DNA of 13,965 nt, taken from the IMG/VR virus record IMGVR_UViG_2681813421_000009. One strand, written 5' to 3'. A model generated the notes under the pieces. That model made no database searches. It was not told where the DNA came from and was given only the letters and a program-made list of their open reading frames with translations. Both the position numbers and the translations under genes were made by a program. Source of the DNA: a virus. Lineage: Duplodnaviria; Heunggongvirae; Uroviricota; Caudoviricetes. Each line of letters starts with the position of its first letter. The stretch's first letter is position 1. Positions 1-13,792 of the stretch are shown here, piece after piece.

Positions 1-1269
1 ATGCCAAAACTCACAGATATGCAGATCCGCGCATGGATAAAGGCGGGAGACAGATTTGATGGCAAGGCAGACGGCAACGGCCTTTATATTTGCTACCCCA
101 AAAACTACACAGTCCCGTTCTGGCGATTCCGATATAAGCTCGCAGGAAAACAGCGGGCTATGGTTATCGGCTCTTACTCCGAACTGTCACTATCAAAAGC
201 CAGAGAAACAGCAAAAGAGCTGTCAGCCAGAGTTGCTCTTGGCTATGACGTAGCAGCAGAAAAACAGGAACGAAAAGCTGAAGCACTGGCAAAAATGGAG
301 GCTGAGAAAAACGCCATGCGCGTTTCAGATCTGGCCGCCGAATACTTCGAGCGACAGATACTTCCGAGATGGAAACATCCCGATATCCTTCGCCGGAGAA
401 TTGATAAGGATATTAACCCCTGCATTGGGCATATGAAGGTAGAGGACGTTAAGCCACGTCACATTGACGACATGTTAAAAGGTATCGTTGACCGAGGAGC
501 ACCAACGATAGCAACAGATGTATTACGCTGGACACGCCGTATCTTTGACTATGGGATAAAACGCCACGCTCTGGAGATAAACCCTTGTTCAGCGTTTGAA
601 GTATCTGATGCTGGTGGTAAAGAGGTTTCCCGCGACCGTTGGCTAACTCGCGATGAGCTTATCAGGCTATTCGAGGCTATGCGCACCGCAAAAGGATTCA
701 GCCGCCAGAACGAACTGACATTTAAGCTATTGCTGGCACTATGCGTTCGTAAGATGGAGTTATGCGCCGCACGATGGGAAGAGTTTGATTTAGATGGTGC
801 GGTATGGCATTTGCCGGAAGAACGCAGCAAAAACGGAGACCCTATTGATATACCTCTACCTTCCCCAGCCGTTGAATGGTTGAGAGAGCTACACACCTTT
901 TCATGTAATAGCGCATGGGTGCTTCCGGCCAGGAAGATGCAAAACAGAATGATCCCACATATTCAGGAAAGCACTTTACCCGTAGCACTGGCTAAGGTTC
1001 GCGCCGAAATGCCGGATGTGCCTAATTTCACGATTCACGACTTCCGACGCACCGCACGTACTCATTTAGCAGCATTGGGTGTTGATCCTGTCGTGGCGGA
1101 ACGATGCCTCAATCATCGCATTAAGGGCGTAGAGGGGATTTATAACCGTCATCAGTATTTTGATGAGCGTAAAGCAGCACTGGCACAGTGGGCAGATCTG
1201 CTGGTGGCACTGGAAAGCGGGAAAGACTACAACGTAACGCCATTCGATAAAGCCCGGAGGCAAATGTGA
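1..1269 (+). CDS. int: P4-family tyrosine integrase (site-specific recombinase)
   Basis: 422-aa ORF. C-terminal catalytic region carries the tyrosine-recombinase H-x-x-R box (HDFRRTARTHL) and a downstream Tyr-containing segment (GIYNRHQY); overall size and layout match P4/CP4-57-type integrases. The ORF begins at window position 1, so upstream att/tRNA context is not visible. Confidence 0.9.
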   Translation: MPKLTDMQIRAWIKAGDRFDGKADGNGLYICYPKNYTVPFWRFRYKLAGKQRAMVIGSYSELSLSKARETAKELSARVALGYDVAAEKQERKAEALAKMEAEKNAMRVSDLAAEYFERQILPRWKHPDILRRRIDKDINPCIGHMKVEDVKPRHIDDMLKGIVDRGAPTIATDVLRWTRRIFDYGIKRHALEINPCSAFEVSDAGGKEVSRDRWLTRDELIRLFEAMRTAKGFSRQNELTFKLLLALCVRKMELCAARWEEFDLDGAVWHLPEERSKNGDPIDIPLPSPAVEWLRELHTFSCNSAWVLPARKMQNRMIPHIQESTLPVALAKVRAEMPDVPNFTIHDFRRTARTHLAALGVDPVVAERCLNHRIKGVEGIYNRHQYFDERKAALAQWADLLVALESGKDYNVTPFDKARRQM

Positions 1270-3049: not shown

Positions 3050-3883
3050 ATGAACATCGAAAAAAGCAGATTAATTTCTGAGGCCGCCCCTCATCTGAAC
3101 GCCTCTCTGGGCACAATTAACGGTAATGAATTTGCCGCAATTGTCCCGGTTATTTCTGGTCATATAGGCGGGCGTGAAACCAATATTGTTAGCGCAAAAG
3201 CGTTACACAAAGCGTTGGGCGTGGGAAAAGACTTCTCTACATGGATCACTGATCGCATCTCTGAATATGACTTCACCATTGGGCACGATTACTCAGTCCA
3301 TAAAACAATTTCCCCAAATTTGGGGAAAAGCCCGAATGACGCGGCTTACAGCAAGATTAAGCAGTCTGGCAGACCCGGCAAAGACTATCTGTTAAGTGTC
3401 GGAATGGCGAAAGAACTGGCAATGATCGAACGCAATGATCAGGGTCGCGCTATCCGCCGTTATTTCATCCAGTGCGAGAAAGAATTACAGCGTAGCGTGC
3501 CTGAAATCGCCGCCCGCTATCGTCGCCAGCTAAAAGCCCGTATCAGTGCCGCAAACAACTTCAAGCCAATGTGCGATGCGCTGAATATGGCCCGTGCCGA
3601 GATGGGGAAAACGACGCAGCAACACCACTACACAAACGAGAGCAATATGATTTCTCGTATCGTTCTTGGTGGGCTAACTGCTAAGCAGTGGGCGCGGATA
3701 AATGGCTATTCTGGCGAACCTCGCGACCATATGAACGCAGAACAGCTTGAGCACCTCTCATATCTCGAAAGCACCAATATCACGTTAATTGATATGGGCA
3801 TGGAATATGAGCAGCGCAAAGGAGAACTCACCCGCCTGTCGCAACGCTGGCTCGCCAAGCGTCTGGAGGCGGTCCATGTTTAA
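3050..3883 (+). CDS. phage antirepressor (AntA-like N-terminal domain plus KilAC domain)
   Basis: 277-aa ORF. SAKALHKALGVGKDFSTWITDRISEYDFTIGHDYSV resembles the AntA/Bro-N pattern and DYLLSVGMAKELAMIERNDQGRAIRRYFIQCEK resembles the KilAC (ANT) domain. RBS ACGGAG 8 nt upstream. Confidence 0.8.
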   Translation: MNIEKSRLISEAAPHLNASLGTINGNEFAAIVPVISGHIGGRETNIVSAKALHKALGVGKDFSTWITDRISEYDFTIGHDYSVHKTISPNLGKSPNDAAYSKIKQSGRPGKDYLLSVGMAKELAMIERNDQGRAIRRYFIQCEKELQRSVPEIAARYRRQLKARISAANNFKPMCDALNMARAEMGKTTQQHHYTNESNMISRIVLGGLTAKQWARINGYSGEPRDHMNAEQLEHLSYLESTNITLIDMGMEYEQRKGELTRLSQRWLAKRLEAVHV

Positions 3884-4058
3884 GCCGACAGGAACACCAC
3901 AACCTCAAAAACGCTACAAAGATGCCCACGGAGCACTCGTTACTGTCGAAAGCGTGTCTCACAACCGAGTGACGTTTTATCGCGACGGGTATCAATCGCC
4001 ATGCGTACAACCGCTGGCACGTTTCATGAAGGAGTTCGCGGAGGTTAACAAATGCTAA
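3876..4058 (+). CDS. small hypothetical protein (60 aa)
   Basis: ATG at 3876 overlaps the upstream stop (ATGTTTAA), indicating translational coupling. The six-frame ORF from 3789 is probably an N-terminal over-extension. Confidence 0.5.
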   Translation: MFKPTGTPQPQKRYKDAHGALVTVESVSHNRVTFYRDGYQSPCVQPLARFMKEFAEVNKC

Positions 4059-4713
4059 CCGCCCAGAAGAAGATATTTTCACTGGCTGGTATGTCGCCAA
4101 AATCCAGCAATATGACAGCAAAGTCAGACATTAATACAGCAGATACAAGCAAAGTTTATCATTTGCTGGTGGTAGGAGCGGATGCCTTAACTATGTCAGA
4201 AATTACGGTCGATGGTGTTAGCGTTGAGAAGGTCAGCGGCTATGCCAGAGAATTTCTGGTCGTAGATGGCTTTCTCTGCTCGTGTAGTGACTCCACAAAA
4301 ACCTTCGTCCACGCGCGTGACGTTAACGAAATGAGCGCGATGTACTGTGCTTCTGGTTCTTCCAATAGTGAGTTTTCGGAGTCCATAAAAAAGAGCTTGC
4401 CGTTATGCGGCAACACGGTTTATGGTTATAAGGCACCTCATAAAACGGGTGCCGGGATTGGCGTCCTAAAAATTCTGAAGGCGACATATGACGCGCCAAG
4501 CGTCTTTTTTTATGTCGTAGGTCTGACTCACCCATTTTTTGGGCGTTGGTGTATAATCCAGCGCCTTTGTCAATCAATGGTGGCTCAGGCGGGGGCTTCT
4601 TCGGAAGCGCCGGTATCCTTCAGAGCCGGTTACGCCAACCCTGTCTGGGCTACCACCAGCGAAATTGGCGTTTCCGGTGGTAGCGTAACCTGCTATCTGA
4701 AGGAGGCTGCCAC
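4052..4713 (+). CDS. hypothetical protein, 3' boundary unresolved (six-frame ORF runs without a stop to 5119)
   Basis: ATG at 4052 overlaps the upstream stop (ATGCTAA). The N-terminal ~150 codons look protein-like, but the 3' part crosses a strongly structured region and the RBS-supported Icd-like gene in another frame. End coordinate is a placeholder, not an observed stop. Confidence 0.3.
4595..4690 (+). ncRNA. candidate structured regulatory RNA upstream of icd (possibly C4/CI-type antisense RNA)
   Basis: Hairpin GCTTC-TTCG-GAAGC (4595-4608) with a UUCG tetraloop. Nested stem GGTTAC (4628-4633) / GTAACC (4685-4690) enclosing a perfect 9-bp stem GCTACCACC (4649-4657) / GGTGGTAGC (4676-4684). 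Located immediately 5' of the Icd-like gene. Confidence 0.3.
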
Positions 4714-4908
4714 ATGCTGGCTACTACCCCTACCCAAAAAACGCAATTTATCTGGATTATCGCCGCAGTTCGCCGCGATTGCCCGACAATTACCGCCAAA
4801 ATTCATCATATTGCTGCCGAGTCTGAACGCGATGCTCGCCGTTCTCTGGTGCGCGATCACGTCTGCTTTTTTGCTGGTCGTATCCGCATGGAGGTGGCAC
4901 ATGATTAA
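4714..4908 (+). CDS. Icd-like protein (host cell division inhibitor Icd family)
   Basis: 64-aa ORF with strong RBS AGGAGG at 4701-4706, 7 nt before the ATG. Sequence pattern FIWIIAAVRRD...ERDARRSLVRDHV.FFAGRI matches my recollection of Icd-like proteins of P1/P4-type elements. Confidence 0.7.
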   Translation: MLATTPTQKTQFIWIIAAVRRDCPTITAKIHHIAAESERDARRSLVRDHVCFFAGRIRMEVAHD

Positions 4909-5119
4909 AACCTACGATGTGCATATGGATCCCCTCGAACGCACAAGCCAGATCATCACACTGACAGAAGTGATTAACGACATTCTGGTGAGCAACTCTC
5001 CCTCACGAGACGAAAGACTGAAGGCGTTACTCGCGATATTGGATCTCGCCGTTCGTGACGTTCATTTCCTGCTGGAAGGTGGCGAAATGCCAGTAAAAAC
5101 GGGGGCAACCAATGAATAA
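4901..5119 (+). CDS. small hypothetical protein (72 aa)
   Basis: ATG at 4901 preceded by GGAGGTG (4890-4896) and overlapping the Icd-like stop (ATGATTAA). Same frame as the long 4052 ORF, but this internal start has its own RBS. Confidence 0.5.
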   Translation: MIKTYDVHMDPLERTSQIITLTEVINDILVSNSPSRDERLKALLAILDLAVRDVHFLLEGGEMPVKTGATNE

Positions 5120-5306
5120 CTCAATTAATACCCCTCGCCTTACGTCCGCACTTCAATTAATCGAGCAAGCAGCGGCTGTCCTGGTTGCTGTCAGTCTTTC
5201 GGCTGAAGAAATGGACGCTGCTGATGTCGTGGATGCGATTAAAGCGTGCTCATCTTTGGTTAACGATGCCCGTGCAGAGCTGGTAATTCTTGGTGGTGAA
5301 AAATGA
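5112..5306 (+). CDS. small hypothetical protein (64 aa)
   Basis: ATG overlaps the upstream stop (ATGAATAA); part of the coupled operon. Confidence 0.5.
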   Translation: MNNSINTPRLTSALQLIEQAAAVLVAVSLSAEEMDAADVVDAIKACSSLVNDARAELVILGGEK

Positions 5307-5566
5307 ATATCAACTTAATTTATCGTCATCCGTGTGAGCTGGAAATTGAATCATTGCTGGGGCGCGAAGAGCCATATCCAGACACATTCACTCCCGCAGA
5401 TTGCGCGACTGAACGGCTTACCAGAGCGCGCACAGGTCTGGTTCATGTGATGAATGAGATTATTCCCTCGGTGGGAGGGGAACAGGCGACAGTAATCAAT
5501 AGCTGGCTACAAAAAGTTACCTCCCTGATAGATATCAGTTTAATCGATGTGGAGAGTGCGAAATGA
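5303..5566 (+). CDS. small hypothetical protein (87 aa)
   Basis: ATG overlaps upstream stop (ATGA); RBS GGTGGTGA upstream. Confidence 0.55.
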   Translation: MNINLIYRHPCELEIESLLGREEPYPDTFTPADCATERLTRARTGLVHVMNEIIPSVGGEQATVINSWLQKVTSLIDISLIDVESAK

Positions 5567-5784
5567 CCAACATCCAGCTCATTGAAGCGCAATGTCGCAT
5601 CGAACAGGTTCAGACTGTTTTAGGGTTCTGGCTTGAAGGGGCCAGCCCAAGCAACAGAGACAAGTTAATGATTGGCGCGGTTATGTCACTGCTCAATGGC
5701 GTACCAGAAGCTATTCAGGAAGCGGACGAATTGTTGGGCAAATATGAGTTACAGAATCATTCAGGCGAGGCGAAACATGAATAA
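5563..5784 (+). CDS. small hypothetical protein (73 aa)
   Basis: ATG overlaps upstream stop (ATGA); RBS GGAGAG upstream. Confidence 0.55.
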   Translation: MTNIQLIEAQCRIEQVQTVLGFWLEGASPSNRDKLMIGAVMSLLNGVPEAIQEADELLGKYELQNHSGEAKHE

Positions 5785-6379
5785 TTTCTTAACTTTCCAT
5801 GCAGAAGCAACGCCTGGCGGCGTAAACATCATGTACCGCAGCAACGATGGCATGACAGAACGCGTTGAGGCCGTCTCATATATTGATGCCGTAAATCGTC
5901 TGGATGCCGGGGATTATGACGATAAACCAGATGAAGGTATGTCAATACATCTCGCTATTGCCGATGGCGGCAACCAGGGATATTTCGATTACACATCACA
6001 GCATAACGTCATTATGTGGAGATGGCTGATCGCAACAGTATTCATGCTGGAAATGAGAGAGGAAAACGGCACCGTCAGCATTATTGATGACAGTGGCAAT
6101 CATTCCGTGGTTTCTGTTTATTCCAATGGCATCGTCGCCATGCCGCTGTATCCAGTAGCAGAGCGCCTCGCTATGGCAAACAACATTGAGGGCGCAATGA
6201 TCGAGAAATATGGTGTTGATGTCGGAACAAAGAATGCCATCATTTTTTACAGCAACATGTTCGATGTCGAACAGGGAACACTCACTTCGTTTGGGCGAGA
6301 AGTGCTTGCCGATCTTCACAACAGCTTTATTGCCGAACTAAACGAAAACGGCATCCCAGAAGCACCAGTGACGCACTAA
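5777..6379 (+). CDS. hypothetical acidic protein (200 aa)
   Basis: Internal ATG at 5777 (MNNFLTF...) overlaps the upstream stop (ATGAATAA) and has RBS AGGCGAGG. The six-frame ORF from 5672 is probably an over-extension into the preceding gene. Confidence 0.55.
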   Translation: MNNFLTFHAEATPGGVNIMYRSNDGMTERVEAVSYIDAVNRLDAGDYDDKPDEGMSIHLAIADGGNQGYFDYTSQHNVIMWRWLIATVFMLEMREENGTVSIIDDSGNHSVVSVYSNGIVAMPLYPVAERLAMANNIEGAMIEKYGVDVGTKNAIIFYSNMFDVEQGTLTSFGREVLADLHNSFIAELNENGIPEAPVTH

Positions 6380-10351: not shown

Positions 10352-10384
10352 ATGCCACCAGCTACTGAACGGTGGCATTTTTTT
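10352..10384 (+). terminator. Rho-independent terminator
   Basis: Stem ATGCCACC (10352-10359) / GGTGGCAT (10371-10378) with an 11-nt loop, followed by a run of seven T. The opposite strand lacks a 3' T-run. Confidence 0.5.
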
Positions 10385-10480
10385 GTGCTATTTGTTTCAT
10401 ATTTTGCAATCACAATGATGAATGTTGCGTTTTATGAAACTATAATGACTGTTGTTTTATACAGTTCTAAGGGGGGCGTT

Positions 10481-10654
10481 ATGGCTATTTCAGTAAAGCC
10501 AGTATTGATAAGTGAGAAGCAAATGGAAGCGATAAAGAAAATTCAGGAGGAGCAGCGTAAAAAATCAGAGGTAGGAGTTGCGCCAACGATCCACGAAATT
10601 GCTCGGGGATTAATGGATAAGGCGCTGGCTTACACTTTAACTGGACGTGGGTAA
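10481..10654 (+). CDS. small DNA-binding-like protein (57 aa, possible ribbon-helix-helix fold)
   Basis: ATG at 10481 with RBS AAGGGGGG 5 nt upstream. The six-frame ORF from 10352 would overlap the terminator hairpin and has no RBS. The RHH call is a guess from size and charge pattern only. Confidence 0.5.
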   Translation: MAISVKPVLISEKQMEAIKKIQEEQRKKSEVGVAPTIHEIARGLMDKALAYTLTGRG

Positions 10655-10658
10655 ATTT

Positions 10659-12002
10659 ATGGCTACGTGGCAACAGGGTATTAATTCTGGTGGTTTTCTG
10701 GCTGGCATCGGTGCGCAAAATGAGAATGCGCCAAAGGCAAGCGACATTAACGCAACGCTTGGTCTGATCCGCGAAAACAATGAACTGGCTCGCTCAGGTG
10801 CAAATAACGTTGCTCTGACAGGTCTTCGTGGTCTGGCTGGAGTTGCTGACATTTATAAGCAGCAGCAACAGCAGGAACGTAAAGCGGCATTCCAGAAAGG
10901 TTATGCAGATGCTTATGCGTCCGGTGACAGGGAGCAGATGCGTAATCTTATTACAGCATTCCCAGAAGAGTTTGAGGAAGTCCGTAAAGGGATGAGTTAT
11001 GTCGATGATGCTCAAAGGGATGATTATGGCAATCTGGCGCTCAAAGCACAGGTAGCCTCATCGCTTGGTCAGGGCGCATTTGGCAGGTTCATGATGGATA
11101 ATGAGCAGGAGATGCGTCGTTTAGGTATCCCTCCAGAAACTATTGCTGAAATGCAGGTTAATGACCCGCAGGGCTTCCAGCATTTCGCAGGTAATCTGGC
11201 GCTGTTTTCTCTCGGTCATGAGAAGTATTTCGATATCAAAGATCAAATGGAAGGTCGTCGACTTGAGCAAGGGCGACTGGATGAAAGTATGCGTCAGGCT
11301 GACATGGAGAACGCGAGAGGATGGGCAAATATCCAGAACGCTCAACTAGACAGGGCTCAGCGAGCACAAATTCACTCAGATGAGATGGGATTGAAGCTAA
11401 TGGAGCTGGGGCAAAAAGGTAAGCCGTCAGCAGACTTAATTAAGGGATTAAATTCTGACATTACCAATTTTGGCAAAAATTATAACTCTGTCAGAGCGGC
11501 GGCAAACTCTCTGCAAGCCCTTAGCAAGGTAAATACTGGCGCTGCCCAACTTGGGATTATCTTCAACTACATGAAATCTCTTGACCCGCAGTCAGTCGTT
11601 CGTGAAGGCGAACAGGTTCAGGTAATGCGGTCTGATGGCATATGGGGACAAATCAAAGGATACATAGACCAGCTTAATGCTGGAAACGGCCTGTCGCAGG
11701 AGGCAAAGGATAACATTGTTAACGCCGCAAAAATCAACGCCAATGCTATGGGGCAGCAGTTTAACCAGCAGGTTGACGAGTATCTCGATACATATGGAGA
11801 AACTATTCCTCAGGGGCTAAGAAAAAGCCTTGAAAGAAGGAAAGCGAAGCTATTTGACGATGTTTCCGGGCAGCCTACATCACAGGCTGGCACTGGACAG
11901 GCAAAAGCGGCAACCGGAGGAATATCAGAAGGCGCAACGGCAACCAACCCTAAAACTGGTCAGAAAATCATTTACAGGAACGGAAAATGGCAGCAAATGT
12001 AA
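10659..12002 (+). CDS. hypothetical Gln-rich, coiled-coil-like protein (about 447 aa)
   Basis: ATG at 10659, 4 nt after the upstream stop; a GTG at 10647 is the alternative start. Contains a QQQQQ run and many Q/E/R-rich predicted helical segments. No catalytic motif recognised. Confidence 0.6.
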   Translation: MATWQQGINSGGFLAGIGAQNENAPKASDINATLGLIRENNELARSGANNVALTGLRGLAGVADIYKQQQQQERKAAFQKGYADAYASGDREQMRNLITAFPEEFEEVRKGMSYVDDAQRDDYGNLALKAQVASSLGQGAFGRFMMDNEQEMRRLGIPPETIAEMQVNDPQGFQHFAGNLALFSLGHEKYFDIKDQMEGRRLEQGRLDESMRQADMENARGWANIQNAQLDRAQRAQIHSDEMGLKLMELGQKGKPSADLIKGLNSDITNFGKNYNSVRAAANSLQALSKVNTGAAQLGIIFNYMKSLDPQSVVREGEQVQVMRSDGIWGQIKGYIDQLNAGNGLSQEAKDNIVNAAKINANAMGQQFNQQVDEYLDTYGETIPQGLRKSLERRKAKLFDDVSGQPTSQAGTGQAKAATGGISEGATATNPKTGQKIIYRNGKWQQM

Positions 12003-13792
12003 TCTTACCGGAAGGTTTTGTGCTCGATGAACAACCTGATAACTCACAGTTTCCTGATAGTTCACAGCTTCCTGATGGTTTTGTGCTTGATGCCCAACCA
12101 GAACAGCAGCAATCACCTTTGGTTTCACCAGAGGAAAATTCCAGACAGGAAAATGTTGTTAATAATGCTAACGGTTTCGACCGTTTTATGTATGGCGTTC
12201 TCAGTGGATTGATGGATGTTGGTAAAGGTGTTGGCCTGTTTCAGGATATGACACCAGAAGAGCAAGCCGCAATTCAGTCTCTACAGCAGAAGTTAGCGGC
12301 AAAACCATCAACCGCACAAGATGTTGGTGAGTTCGTTGGACAAGCAGCGCCATTTGTTAGTGGTGGTGGGATTATTTCTCAGGTTCCCAAAGGGGCGGCA
12401 AGACTGGCTGCCGCCGCAGGGCTTGGTGCTGGAGAAGGGGCTATTGTAGCCAATGGAACAAATAGCGATGTTGCTTCCGGCGCTGCTATTGGCGCTGTGG
12501 CTGGCCCTGTAGCCGAACTTGCTGGCCCTGCAATTAATAAAATAGCTGGGAAATTAACCAAGAAGAATGTTTCTTCGATTCCAGATATTGAGGGGATTAC
12601 TCCTGCCGAAGAGAAAATTCGTAAGTTATCTGCACAAGGCAACCCAAATCTTGCCTCTTCGCTTGAAGGGCTAGATCTAAAACCTCAGAAAGAAATTGTT
12701 GAGGCTGCAAATAGGCTTCATGTTGATTCAGTTCTTCCTTCTCATTTATCAGGAAATGAGCAATACCAAGCTGTAGAGCAAGCCCTAAAGTCACGGACAG
12801 GATCAGCGTTAAAAGCTCAAGAAGATAAAGCAATAAGCGAATTAGCCTCTAGTGCTGGCAAGATAATCGATGATGTTGCTGGTGCGCCAGATGCGTTAGC
12901 TATGAGCGAAAAATATATTTATCAGATAAATAGTAGAATGGAAGCACTAAAAAACCGTAGTGATCAGTTATATAAACGTGTTGATTCCGCTCTATCACCA
13001 AGAACAAAAGTCGAAGCAAATAACACAAGCACTATGCTGGAAAAAATCGCTGATGATTTAGGAGGGTGGGATAATCTTGACCCAATAGAAAAGCGAGTTT
13101 TTACAGCAATAAACCCCGGCCCAGATAGCATCCTAACGTATGCAAATTTAAACAGGCAAAGGCGTTTAGTTGGTGATGCCCTAAATAAAAAGCAGGGGCC
13201 ATACAAAGATGCTGATAAAGAAGCGCTATCAAGACTATATGGAGCTTTAGCTGAAGACCAAAAATCTGTCTTATCCAATACTGGATACTTGCGAGATTTC
13301 GAAGTCGCACAACGCCTTGTAGCTATGAGAAAAAACTTAGAAAGGCAAATGGTAAATCTTCGCGGGAAAACACTTAATGGGGATATAGCGTATAAAGTAA
13401 CGAATTCTCTTCAATCTATGGCAAAAGGTGATGCGAGAGGGTTTCGTGAGATTATGCAAAATACTCCATCAAGAACATTGCGAAGGGAGCTAGTAGGAAC
13501 AGCATTAAGAGATATGCTTTCCTCTGGGAAGCGTGGGGCCGACTTTAATCCATCTGGCTTCGCAGATTGGTGGCAAAACTTGCAACACAGTGGACAGCTA
13601 AAGACTTTGGCTGAACATTTGCCAAAAGAAACAATGAGCGGACTATATGATGTATACAAAGTTGCCAGAGCAATAAAAAATGCTAAAGCGCATGAAATAT
13701 CTACTGGTAAGCTGAATGAGTTTGTAAACAGATTTAATCGGGTAACAGCTCCATACGAACTAGCAGCAAAGGTAGTGACTCCAACTTACTGA
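11987..13792 (+). CDS. hypothetical large protein, 3' end truncated by IS1 insertion
   Basis: ATG at 11987 with RBS AGGAA, overlapping the upstream gene by 16 nt. N-terminal tandem motif [10 protein letters not shown] / [10 protein letters not shown], then a Gly/Ala-rich segment, then an AT-rich-encoded K/E/N-rich C-terminal region. Native sequence ends at 13770; the last seven codons (VVTPTY-stop) are read from the IS1 inverted repeat. Confidence 0.6.

Follow-up and report, generated by a model that had tools for sequence, protein, structure and literature searches.

A long open reading frame (ORF) in an Escherichia coli P4-like satellite is, by sequence comparison, the counterpart of the eta gene of phage P4, and its frame is kept open across related loci over a stretch that specifies two structured RNAs and, in another frame, a further gene. 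The ORF (4052–5119; 355 amino acids, ATG start, no internal stop) lies in a 13,965-nucleotide (nt) stretch of IMG/VR virus record IMGVR_UViG_2681813421_000009. This stretch, hereafter the window, carries the immunity and early region of a satellite of the phage-inducible chromosomal island (PICI) type, adjoining yicC. Selection appears to act on the open frame rather than on the protein sequence, at least over codons 124–283, and the frame is probably kept open as ribosomes must travel along it. We consider it likely that this eta-like frame is translated from upstream transcripts and that its translation overrides both termination and the immunity conferred by a C4 antisense RNA.

All features are on the plus strand unless stated otherwise. 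A Shine–Dalgarno sequence (GGAGG, 4040–4044) lies 7 nt ahead of the ATG of the long ORF, which overlaps the stop codon of an upstream gene (ATGCTAA, 4052–4058); Pfam identifies that gene as DUF4222, and the boundaries of coding sequences (CDSs) were taken from the Prokaryotic Genome Annotation Pipeline (PGAP). The overlap suggests translational coupling of the kind expected of an eta-type gene. The frame then crosses a putative promoter (4397–4426), an isrK-type RNA (4433–4510), a C4-type RNA (4573–4660) and an Icd/Kil-like gene (4714–4908; 64 amino acids) that is offset from it by 2, reading all 65 icd codons in their +1 frame, before it joins in frame a nested gene (4901–5119; 72 amino acids) that supplies its last 72 codons. 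A first-pass annotation of this DNA had correctly located the long ORF, the Icd-like gene with its ribosome-binding site (RBS), the internal ATG at 4901 with an RBS of its own and a run of seven T, and the structured RNA region that it proposed is real, with two Rfam families, isrK and C4, scoring above their gathering thresholds. It had judged the ORF to be probably a chimera. The ORF is indeed composite, extending over an RNA region, an out-of-frame icd and a small gene, but it is not accidental, as its openness is maintained.

Openness of the frame across related loci

Related loci, which are themselves interrelated, were gathered without reference to the long ORF in two surveys. A DNA pattern derived from the 5′ stem of C4 recovered 81 unique IMG/VR loci; none of the 81 has a stop in the frame across C4, and in 80 the frame extends to the end of kil/icd; the other two frames are closed within C4. 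An alignment of Icd/Kil proteins recovered 71 unique loci, 70 of which have a frame that is stop-free from 250 nt or more ahead of the icd ATG and remains so to the end of icd. This frame is in frame with icd at 24 loci (the P4 type) and in the +1 frame at 46 (the window type); none is in the +2 frame. In most cases the +1-type frame extends 172–211 nt into the next gene. Both scans of viral contigs were far more productive than a profile scan of genome contigs with the Ash alignment, which gave 5 loci. Single-linkage clustering of N termini merged nearly everything through the promoter-encoding stretch, and its result was not used.

The two frame types permit a direct comparison. The icd +1 frame is stop-free in 37 of 37 unique window-type genes as against 8 of 25 P4-type genes of the same subfamily (Fisher p = 1.5e-9). 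Stops in the +1 frame of the P4-type genes sit at at least ten different positions, and under synonymous resampling the icd +1 frame is open in about 10% of trials. Stops clearly gather in this frame wherever it lies outside a long ORF. The long frame is also uninterrupted in three immunity cassettes that are equal in length and strongly diverged, and both frame types occur among loci of Klebsiella, Pluralibacter and Leclercia, in which the ORFs (181–322 amino acids) each start upstream of isrK. The two frame types are a natural experiment that indicates selection for an open frame as such.

Two loci stand apart. L061 (IMGVR_UViG_3300031418_000615, minus strand, around 805) is a stand-alone isrK–C4 cassette with stops in all three frames, so the RNA sequences alone do not impose an open frame. 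It sits in AT-rich intergenic DNA with no spanning ORF, the downstream gene (MTKNAQSILDP...) is not icd, and the same RNA module is deployed differently here. L061 is also the single in-frame case in a census of stop triplets within C4, which found them in 1, 7 and 6 columns in frames 0, 1 and 2, a weakly significant result. L053, an IMG/VR P4-like contig, is the sole P4-type locus of the 81 with kil out of frame; its eta frame meets a stop at +168, counted from the start of C4, which points either to a broken eta or to a faulty assembly.

The ORF could be an annotation artefact, never translated as a unit and open by chance in RNA, icd and small-gene sequence, with a short upstream gene, the two RNAs, icd and the 72-amino-acid gene as the real units. 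Conserved residues do coincide with nucleic-acid elements, non-synonymous and synonymous changes are almost balanced over the RNA region (a rate ratio of about 0.85), AlphaFold2 yields no fold, and PGAP splits on identical DNA between a 355-amino-acid CDS and a truncated pseudogene plus icd. We nevertheless regard this explanation as quite improbable. There is no in-frame stop to end a short upstream gene, the long ORF has its own Shine–Dalgarno sequence and a conserved N-terminal motif, and eta translation in P4 has been shown genetically, according to the sections on P4 of PMC10111431. The survey results also argue against chance: the icd +1 frame is always open where the ORF continues and mostly closed where it does not, the frame survives three diverged cassettes of equal length, and the L061 cassette bears stops in every frame. 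Nor is this a meaningless six-frame ORF, as the whole frame is open in homologues of 313–355 amino acids from E. coli, Klebsiella and Pluralibacter, an outcome that the first-pass annotation had itself set as its refutation.

Constraint on the encoded protein

Between immunity types, the ratio of non-synonymous to synonymous substitution rates (dN/dS) over the RNA region is 0.82–0.87, as against 0.1–0.35 in neighbouring genes, and variable sites in the cassette show no codon-position bias (13, 10 and 14 at the three positions over C4). We see no protein-level constraint over this region. The N-terminal 123 codons (4052–4420), upstream of the internal promoter, show weakly constrained coding behaviour, with 18, 8 and 23 variable sites by codon position and dN/dS of 0.2–0.6.

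When the columns of a 46-sequence protein alignment were mapped onto the DNA, the invariant residues fell on nucleic-acid elements. L116 corresponds to the −35 hexamer and Y124 to the −10 hexamer, with the adjacent G125 nearly invariant; A128 to G133 correspond to the 5′ hairpin of isrK; F152 corresponds to the T-run, with the adjacent F153 nearly invariant; M176 to S203 correspond to C4; E218 and A220, with a nearly invariant A219 between them, correspond to the icd Shine–Dalgarno region; W223 to T270 correspond to conserved icd codons; and M284 corresponds to the nested ATG in the 46 homologues. The amino-acid conservation over 4421–4900 is accounted for by RNA, promoter and icd constraints and not by a protein fold, and to this extent the doubt that the first-pass annotation expressed about the protein was justified. 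AlphaFold2, run on the same alignment, gave a mean predicted local distance difference test (pLDDT) score of 33.6 and a predicted template modelling (pTM) score of 0.20; residues 1–299 all have pLDDT values below 50, and solely the nested-gene part reaches 56–69.

This has consequences for the names attached to the ORF. The Pfam family Phage_ASH (PF10554) matches it with 117.2 bits (gathering score 26) at residues 124–232, that is nt 4421–4747, exactly the stretch of promoter, isrK, C4 and RBS, and we did not find its conservation to come from a folded protein domain. Several PHROG families that carry the label ‘transcriptional repressor’ or ‘transcriptional regulator’ (phrog_6928, 3960, 821 and 995) match the ORF only at residues 106–232 (4367–4747), which cover just the promoter- and RNA-encoding stretch. 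In P4 records, the last 137 codons of the eta frame are labelled ‘put. ash gene’ or ‘cI gene product’, and this 137-amino-acid annotation is the origin of the Ash family name. Together, the Ash and PHROG labels appear to descend from an obsolete reading of the 1980s in which P4 cI and ash were taken for proteins. Functional inferences from these names are unsafe, because the domain maps onto a promoter, two RNAs and an RBS.

Genome annotation is affected in the same way. PGAP has two versions for identical DNA (window 4052–5119; L001 6153–7009; L002 1653–2720). It calls the 355-amino-acid product, identical to WP_001419054.1, an ‘ash family protein’ in LR883050 and most genomes; in FORC_031, it calls an ‘ash family protein’ pseudogene (4052–4687, ‘missing C-terminus’) together with an Icd-like CDS and omits the 72-amino-acid gene at 4901–5119. 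Both RNAs, which are the actual immunity determinants, are unannotated under either version. The inconsistency matters beyond one record, as related DNA is present in more than 1,000 complete E. coli genomes (1,168 of 5,426 genomes). The matches comprise 1,357 places in 1,173 E. coli records.

An opposite explanation is that Ash/Eta is a functional protein, for example a regulator in a Bro/antirepressor network, in which the RNAs are merely embedded. The N-terminal part gives this explanation its support: dN/dS is below 1, codon position 2 is the least variable, the motif MIxxAQxKSLSLAGL is kept among homologues and some homologues (P0006 and P0010) have fusions to an AntA domain. The portion of PMC10111431 that deals with the Bro network also places eta within it. 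We consider the explanation unlikely, however. No domain besides Phage_ASH was detected, with Pfam, NCBIfam and PHROG giving no known domain in the N-terminal part (4052–4420), which outside the motif is poorly alignable between genera. The Phage_ASH stretch itself evolves neutrally between immunity types, pLDDT values are below 50 for residues 1–299, and the C-terminal 140 residues are wholly different between the frame types, comprising Kil in one and a +1 reading of icd joined to another gene in the other.

The RNA cassette and its neighbouring genes

The putative constitutive promoter, equivalent to PLE of P4, consists of a −35 hexamer TTGCCG (4397–4402), an 18-nt spacer and a −10 hexamer TATGGT (4421–4426), with a predicted transcription start near 4433, inside the long ORF. 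It was identified through conservation and the annotation of a P4 record: the hexamers show little variation when aligned with loci of P4, Klebsiella, Pluralibacter and Leclercia, and they coincide with the ‘-10 consensus’ annotated in X02534. These features suggest a working promoter. On the minus strand, an inverted repeat, TTGCCGTTATGCGGCAA, at 4397–4413 overlaps the −35 hexamer; it scores as terminator-like on that strand, is not conserved in P4 or Klebsiella, and could be an operator or a chance match.

The RNA that begins at the predicted start (4433–4510) matches the isrK family, the type of P4 seqA (RF01394; 60.5 bits, gathering score 50); P4 scores 60.8 bits at the equivalent seqA position. 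It contains two C4 targets, a1 (ATTGGCGT, 4457–4464) and b1 (TCTGAAGG, 4474–4481). The Rfam model c4-a1b1 (RF03163) has no match in the window at its gathering threshold of 46.7, the a1 and b1 sequences themselves being present; elsewhere it scores 44.1 in P4 and 49.3 in L009. The terminator scan and the Rfam alignment both place an intrinsic terminator at 4490–4511, comprising a hairpin (4490–4504) followed by seven T (4505–4511). The run has seven T in P4, Klebsiella and Pluralibacter and six in Leclercia, and it is the U-tail of the isrK/seqA terminator.

The first-pass annotation had seen this T-run as a plausible frameshift site, programmed or arising from a sequencing error, that joins two separate frames. 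Seven T in a row make a textbook slippery or error-prone sequence. However, at least 11 complete, independent E. coli genomes contain the same DNA, 100% identical over 1,401 nt, which excludes read error, the T-run included. The run follows a GC-rich hairpin and fits the terminator of the isrK model, it is kept in four other aligned loci with the same frame open on either side, and the Phage_ASH match (residues 124–232) passes across it unbroken in one frame. The frameshift is therefore ruled out by the identical genomes, the role of the run as a terminator tail and the continuous Pfam match. The related view that the 3′ end of the gene cannot be fixed also no longer applies, as homology to P4 eta puts the end of the frame at the stop codon of the nested gene (5117–5119).

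The C4 RNA, equivalent to the CI immunity RNA of P4, occupies 4573–4660 and matches the full model, 1–87, of RF01695 (79.9 bits, gathering score 45). Its predicted minimum free energy is −46.4 kcal/mol (z = −4.8), and it has the long closing stem and two hairpins of the family; a set of 69 unique homologous 88-mers has pairing in 98.5% of cells and double-sided, compensatory changes at 14 of the 27 pairs. The b′ loop (CCTTCAGA, 4617–4624) and the a′ stretch (ACGCCAA, 4632–4638) are exactly complementary, over 7–9 nt, to two pairs of targets: a1 and b1 in the isrK-type RNA, and a2 and b2 downstream. The a2 target (ATTGGCGT, 4664–4671) is a second copy of a1, and b2 (TCTGAAGGA, 4696–4704) repeats TCTGAAGG at 4696–4703 and overlaps the icd Shine–Dalgarno sequence (AAGGAGG, 4700–4706). 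By analogy with the definition of the C4 family, the RNA may be processed by RNase P to a stable trans-repressing RNA of about 77 nt.

Eleven equal-length ORFs from other genomes sort into three immunity types (compared here as the window against L005, L114 and L118 and against L113, L116 and L119). Across these types, b′ covaries with b1 and b2, and a′ covaries with a1 and a2, giving, for example, the loop and target sets UCCUUCAGA/UCUGAAGG/UCUGAAGGA, UCCAUUCGA/UCGAAUGG/UCGAAUGGA and UCCUUGUAC/GUACGAGG/GUACAAGGA. The cassette (4421–4711) is always exactly 291 nt long and shows 68% identity between types, whereas its flanks are 93–100% identical; from the sequences, this mosaic looks like exchange between otherwise near-identical satellites. 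As the covarying loops and targets define the immunity types, these types could be read directly from genomes. A TATAAT hexamer (4552–4557), 15 nt upstream of the C4 match, is kept among the E. coli variants and not conserved in P4 or Klebsiella; with low confidence, it may be a second promoter resembling P51b of P1. The Rfam int-alpA RNA has no match in the window at its gathering threshold, and it matches upstream in two related satellites (L005 196–263 and L009 387–454).

The Icd/Kil-like gene matches the NCBIfam model phage_ICD_like (NF033153) over 4714–4905 with 71.6 bits (cut-off 25), and its product aligns as a homologue of P4 Kil. The ATG of the nested gene overlaps the icd stop (ATGATTAA, 4901–4908) and is preceded by an RBS of its own (GGAGG, 4890–4894). 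With few substitutions, dN/dS of the nested gene is about 0.1–0.15, and Pfam, NCBIfam and PHROG assign its 72-amino-acid product to no family. Its place corresponds to that of kil in P4 eta, but the two genes are unrelated.

Stop/start overlaps flank the long ORF on both sides and belong to a near-continuous chain (window 3050–6379) that leads from AntA through DUF4222, Ash, icd, the nested gene and four small genes to the primase, with junctions at 3876 (ATGTTTAA), 4052 (ATGCTAA), 4901 (ATGATTAA), 5112 (ATGAATAA), 5303 (ATGA), 5563 (ATGA) and 5777 (ATGAATAA). Such a layout would fit an operon that ribosomes cover throughout. The frames of AntA, DUF4222 and Ash, separate in the window, are fused in P0006 and P0010, which are single ORFs of 461–538 amino acids with an AntA domain and Phage_ASH. 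At window 1–1269 and 10352–13792, a tyrosine integrase next to yicC bounds the element, which carries downstream of the primase genes labelled ‘phage DNA ejection protein’ by PGAP, a layout that resembles the packaging-less PICI class discussed for EcCIMP1 in the relevant part of PMC11773190.

Proposed mechanism and comparison with known systems

In the resting state, transcription would start from the internal promoter near 4433, and part of it would end at the T-run terminator. The remaining transcripts would yield C4 RNA, the a′ and b′ sequences of which would pair with a2 and b2, masking the icd Shine–Dalgarno sequence, and also with a1 and b1. The untranslated icd RNA would then be terminated and the replication genes would stay off, following the logic of c4–icd–ant in P1 and of CI, seqA and seqC in P4. 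On induction, transcription from further upstream would deliver ribosomes by way of the overlapping AntA, DUF4222 and Ash genes. By translating the long frame over the RNA cassette and icd, the ribosomes would keep the transcript covered, so that C4 pairing and Rho-dependent termination would both be prevented, as for P4 eta, and expression would proceed into the small genes and the primase.

Several points weigh against this reading. The kinship among the surveyed loci means that the counts given above are not independent events. The strict σ70 scan did not report the internal promoter, which has 8 of 12 matches. Some purifying selection on the N-terminal part may mean that this part of the protein is functional, and the low pLDDT values are weak evidence, given an alignment of just 46 sequences. 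Promoter use, RNA processing, Rho-dependent termination and translational anti-termination would all follow P4, P1 and Gifsy-1 by analogy, and the genetics of P4 are not literally transferable, as kil/icd is not the in-frame end of the ORF here.

A stricter form of the translation-based reading is that the frame is a ‘ribosome track’, selected purely for being translated, with a polypeptide that is functionless from codon 124 onwards. Two solutions one nucleotide apart would then exist, with kil/icd either in frame or read in +1 and fused onward. We offer this form tentatively, as a real possibility that we would not yet favour. If it is true, the second solution is a selected out-of-frame overlap, on the same strand, across a whole toxin-like gene, and Phage_ASH and several PHROG regulator families are the shadows in protein space of a promoter and two RNAs. 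Apart from this question, the comparison of frames lends indirect support to anti-termination through translation as a feature that P4-like satellites and PICIs have in general.

The closest known system is that of P4, in which eta and kil are reportedly nested genes that share their region with cI, seqA and seqC (Forti et al. 1999, J Bacteriol 181:5225, PMID 10464191, as summarised in PMC10111431). In our analysis, the isrK and C4 matches of P4 have the same order and spacing as those of the window. The stop-free frame of P4 (214 codons) encloses both, and its MMM starts give 197–199 amino acids, the published size of eta. P4 Eta (199 amino acids) matches Phage_ASH at residues 22–146 and phage_ICD_like at residues 146–193, the latter being the C terminus, Kil (73.3 bits), so Eta is Ash plus Kil. 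As in P4, the long ORF of the window starts upstream of an internal constitutive promoter and overlaps the end of an upstream gene; crosses a seqA/isrK RNA, a CI/C4 RNA and a downstream target; and ends in a nested gene with its own RBS. Both ORFs match Phage_ASH, their Kil/Icd proteins are homologous and a primase lies downstream.

The differences from P4 concern the frame and the N terminus. The 199-amino-acid eta of P4 ends, in frame, with kil, whereas the icd of the window is out of frame owing to a 1-nt difference in the spacing between Shine–Dalgarno sequence and ATG: GCCA-CATG (GCCACATG) in the window as against GCCATCATG in P4. The window ORF reaches 355 amino acids because its frame reads icd in +1 and fuses to the unrelated 72-amino-acid gene. 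Its N-terminal part is also longer, with 123 codons before the promoter region, and cannot be aligned with that of P4. In P4 itself (L003 1687–2259), the +1 frame across kil likewise lacks stops and continues in frame into epsilon, forming a 190-codon ORF with a GTG start, so P4 is one nucleotide away from the window-type arrangement. P4 has been studied genetically, whereas the window is known as sequence.

The sections on P4 of PMC10111431 state, citing Forti 1999, that CI RNA and seqA lie within eta, that RNA interactions bring about the termination of transcripts started at the constitutive internal promoter, that Kil is a truncated in-frame product and that translation of Eta, which has been demonstrated genetically, blocks termination. 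The same source, in its treatment of PICIs, reports that the Rfam C4 and isrK models match eta-like genes of Gram-negative PICIs, so the architecture as such is already known. The parts of PMC10111431 and PMC11773190 that concern these elements describe neither two frame types nor a test of selected openness.

The immI operon of P1 and P7 has the element order a1b1, c4 antisense RNA, a2b2, icd and ant; the work on it is reportedly that of Citron and Schuster 1990, Biere et al. 1992 and Riedel et al. 1993. The window shares with it the order of elements, a C4 RNA with a′ and b′ sequences complementary to two target pairs, a b2 target that overlaps the icd Shine–Dalgarno sequence, icd as the gene translated first, its stop coupled to the gene that follows, and a specificity that varies through covarying loops and targets. 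Downstream of icd in the window, no Ant/AntA match was found; an AntA-family gene lies upstream (3050–3883). Unlike that of P1 and P7, the cassette here lies inside a long ORF of a satellite and not in a P1-type plasmid prophage.

A third comparison is with isrK–orf45–anrP of Gifsy-1 in Salmonella, in which orf45 is translated across a processed RNA and nucleotides are conserved where amino acids are not (PMC4825925). The isrK RNA of that locus belongs to the same Rfam isrK family, with read-through of its terminator, and orf45 is coupled to the next gene (PMC4825925). The middle of IsrK pairs with a conserved downstream RNA that is processed to about 80 nt, and IsrK acts as an activator in trans (PMC4825925). 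In contrast to the long ORF, orf45 is short and starts after isrK rather than upstream of the promoter, and the gene downstream of it is an antirepressor.

Among Gram-negative PICIs, the order of integrase, AlpA or helix–turn–helix (HTH) regulator, antirepressor, Ash and primase is shared with the ‘Bro zone’ elements as presented in PMC10111431 and with the EcCIMP1-like elements as presented in PMC11773190; the latter, according to the same portion of that source, carry a conserved ‘Ash family protein’ and, in the case of EcCIMP1, are integrated at tRNA-Thr as against the yicC-adjacent site here. The arrangement in the window is thus the known one of P4 eta, kil and cI in a frame-shifted variant that is common in Enterobacterales, and the value of its analysis lies in a correction of annotation and in comparative evidence of a frame selected for translation as such.

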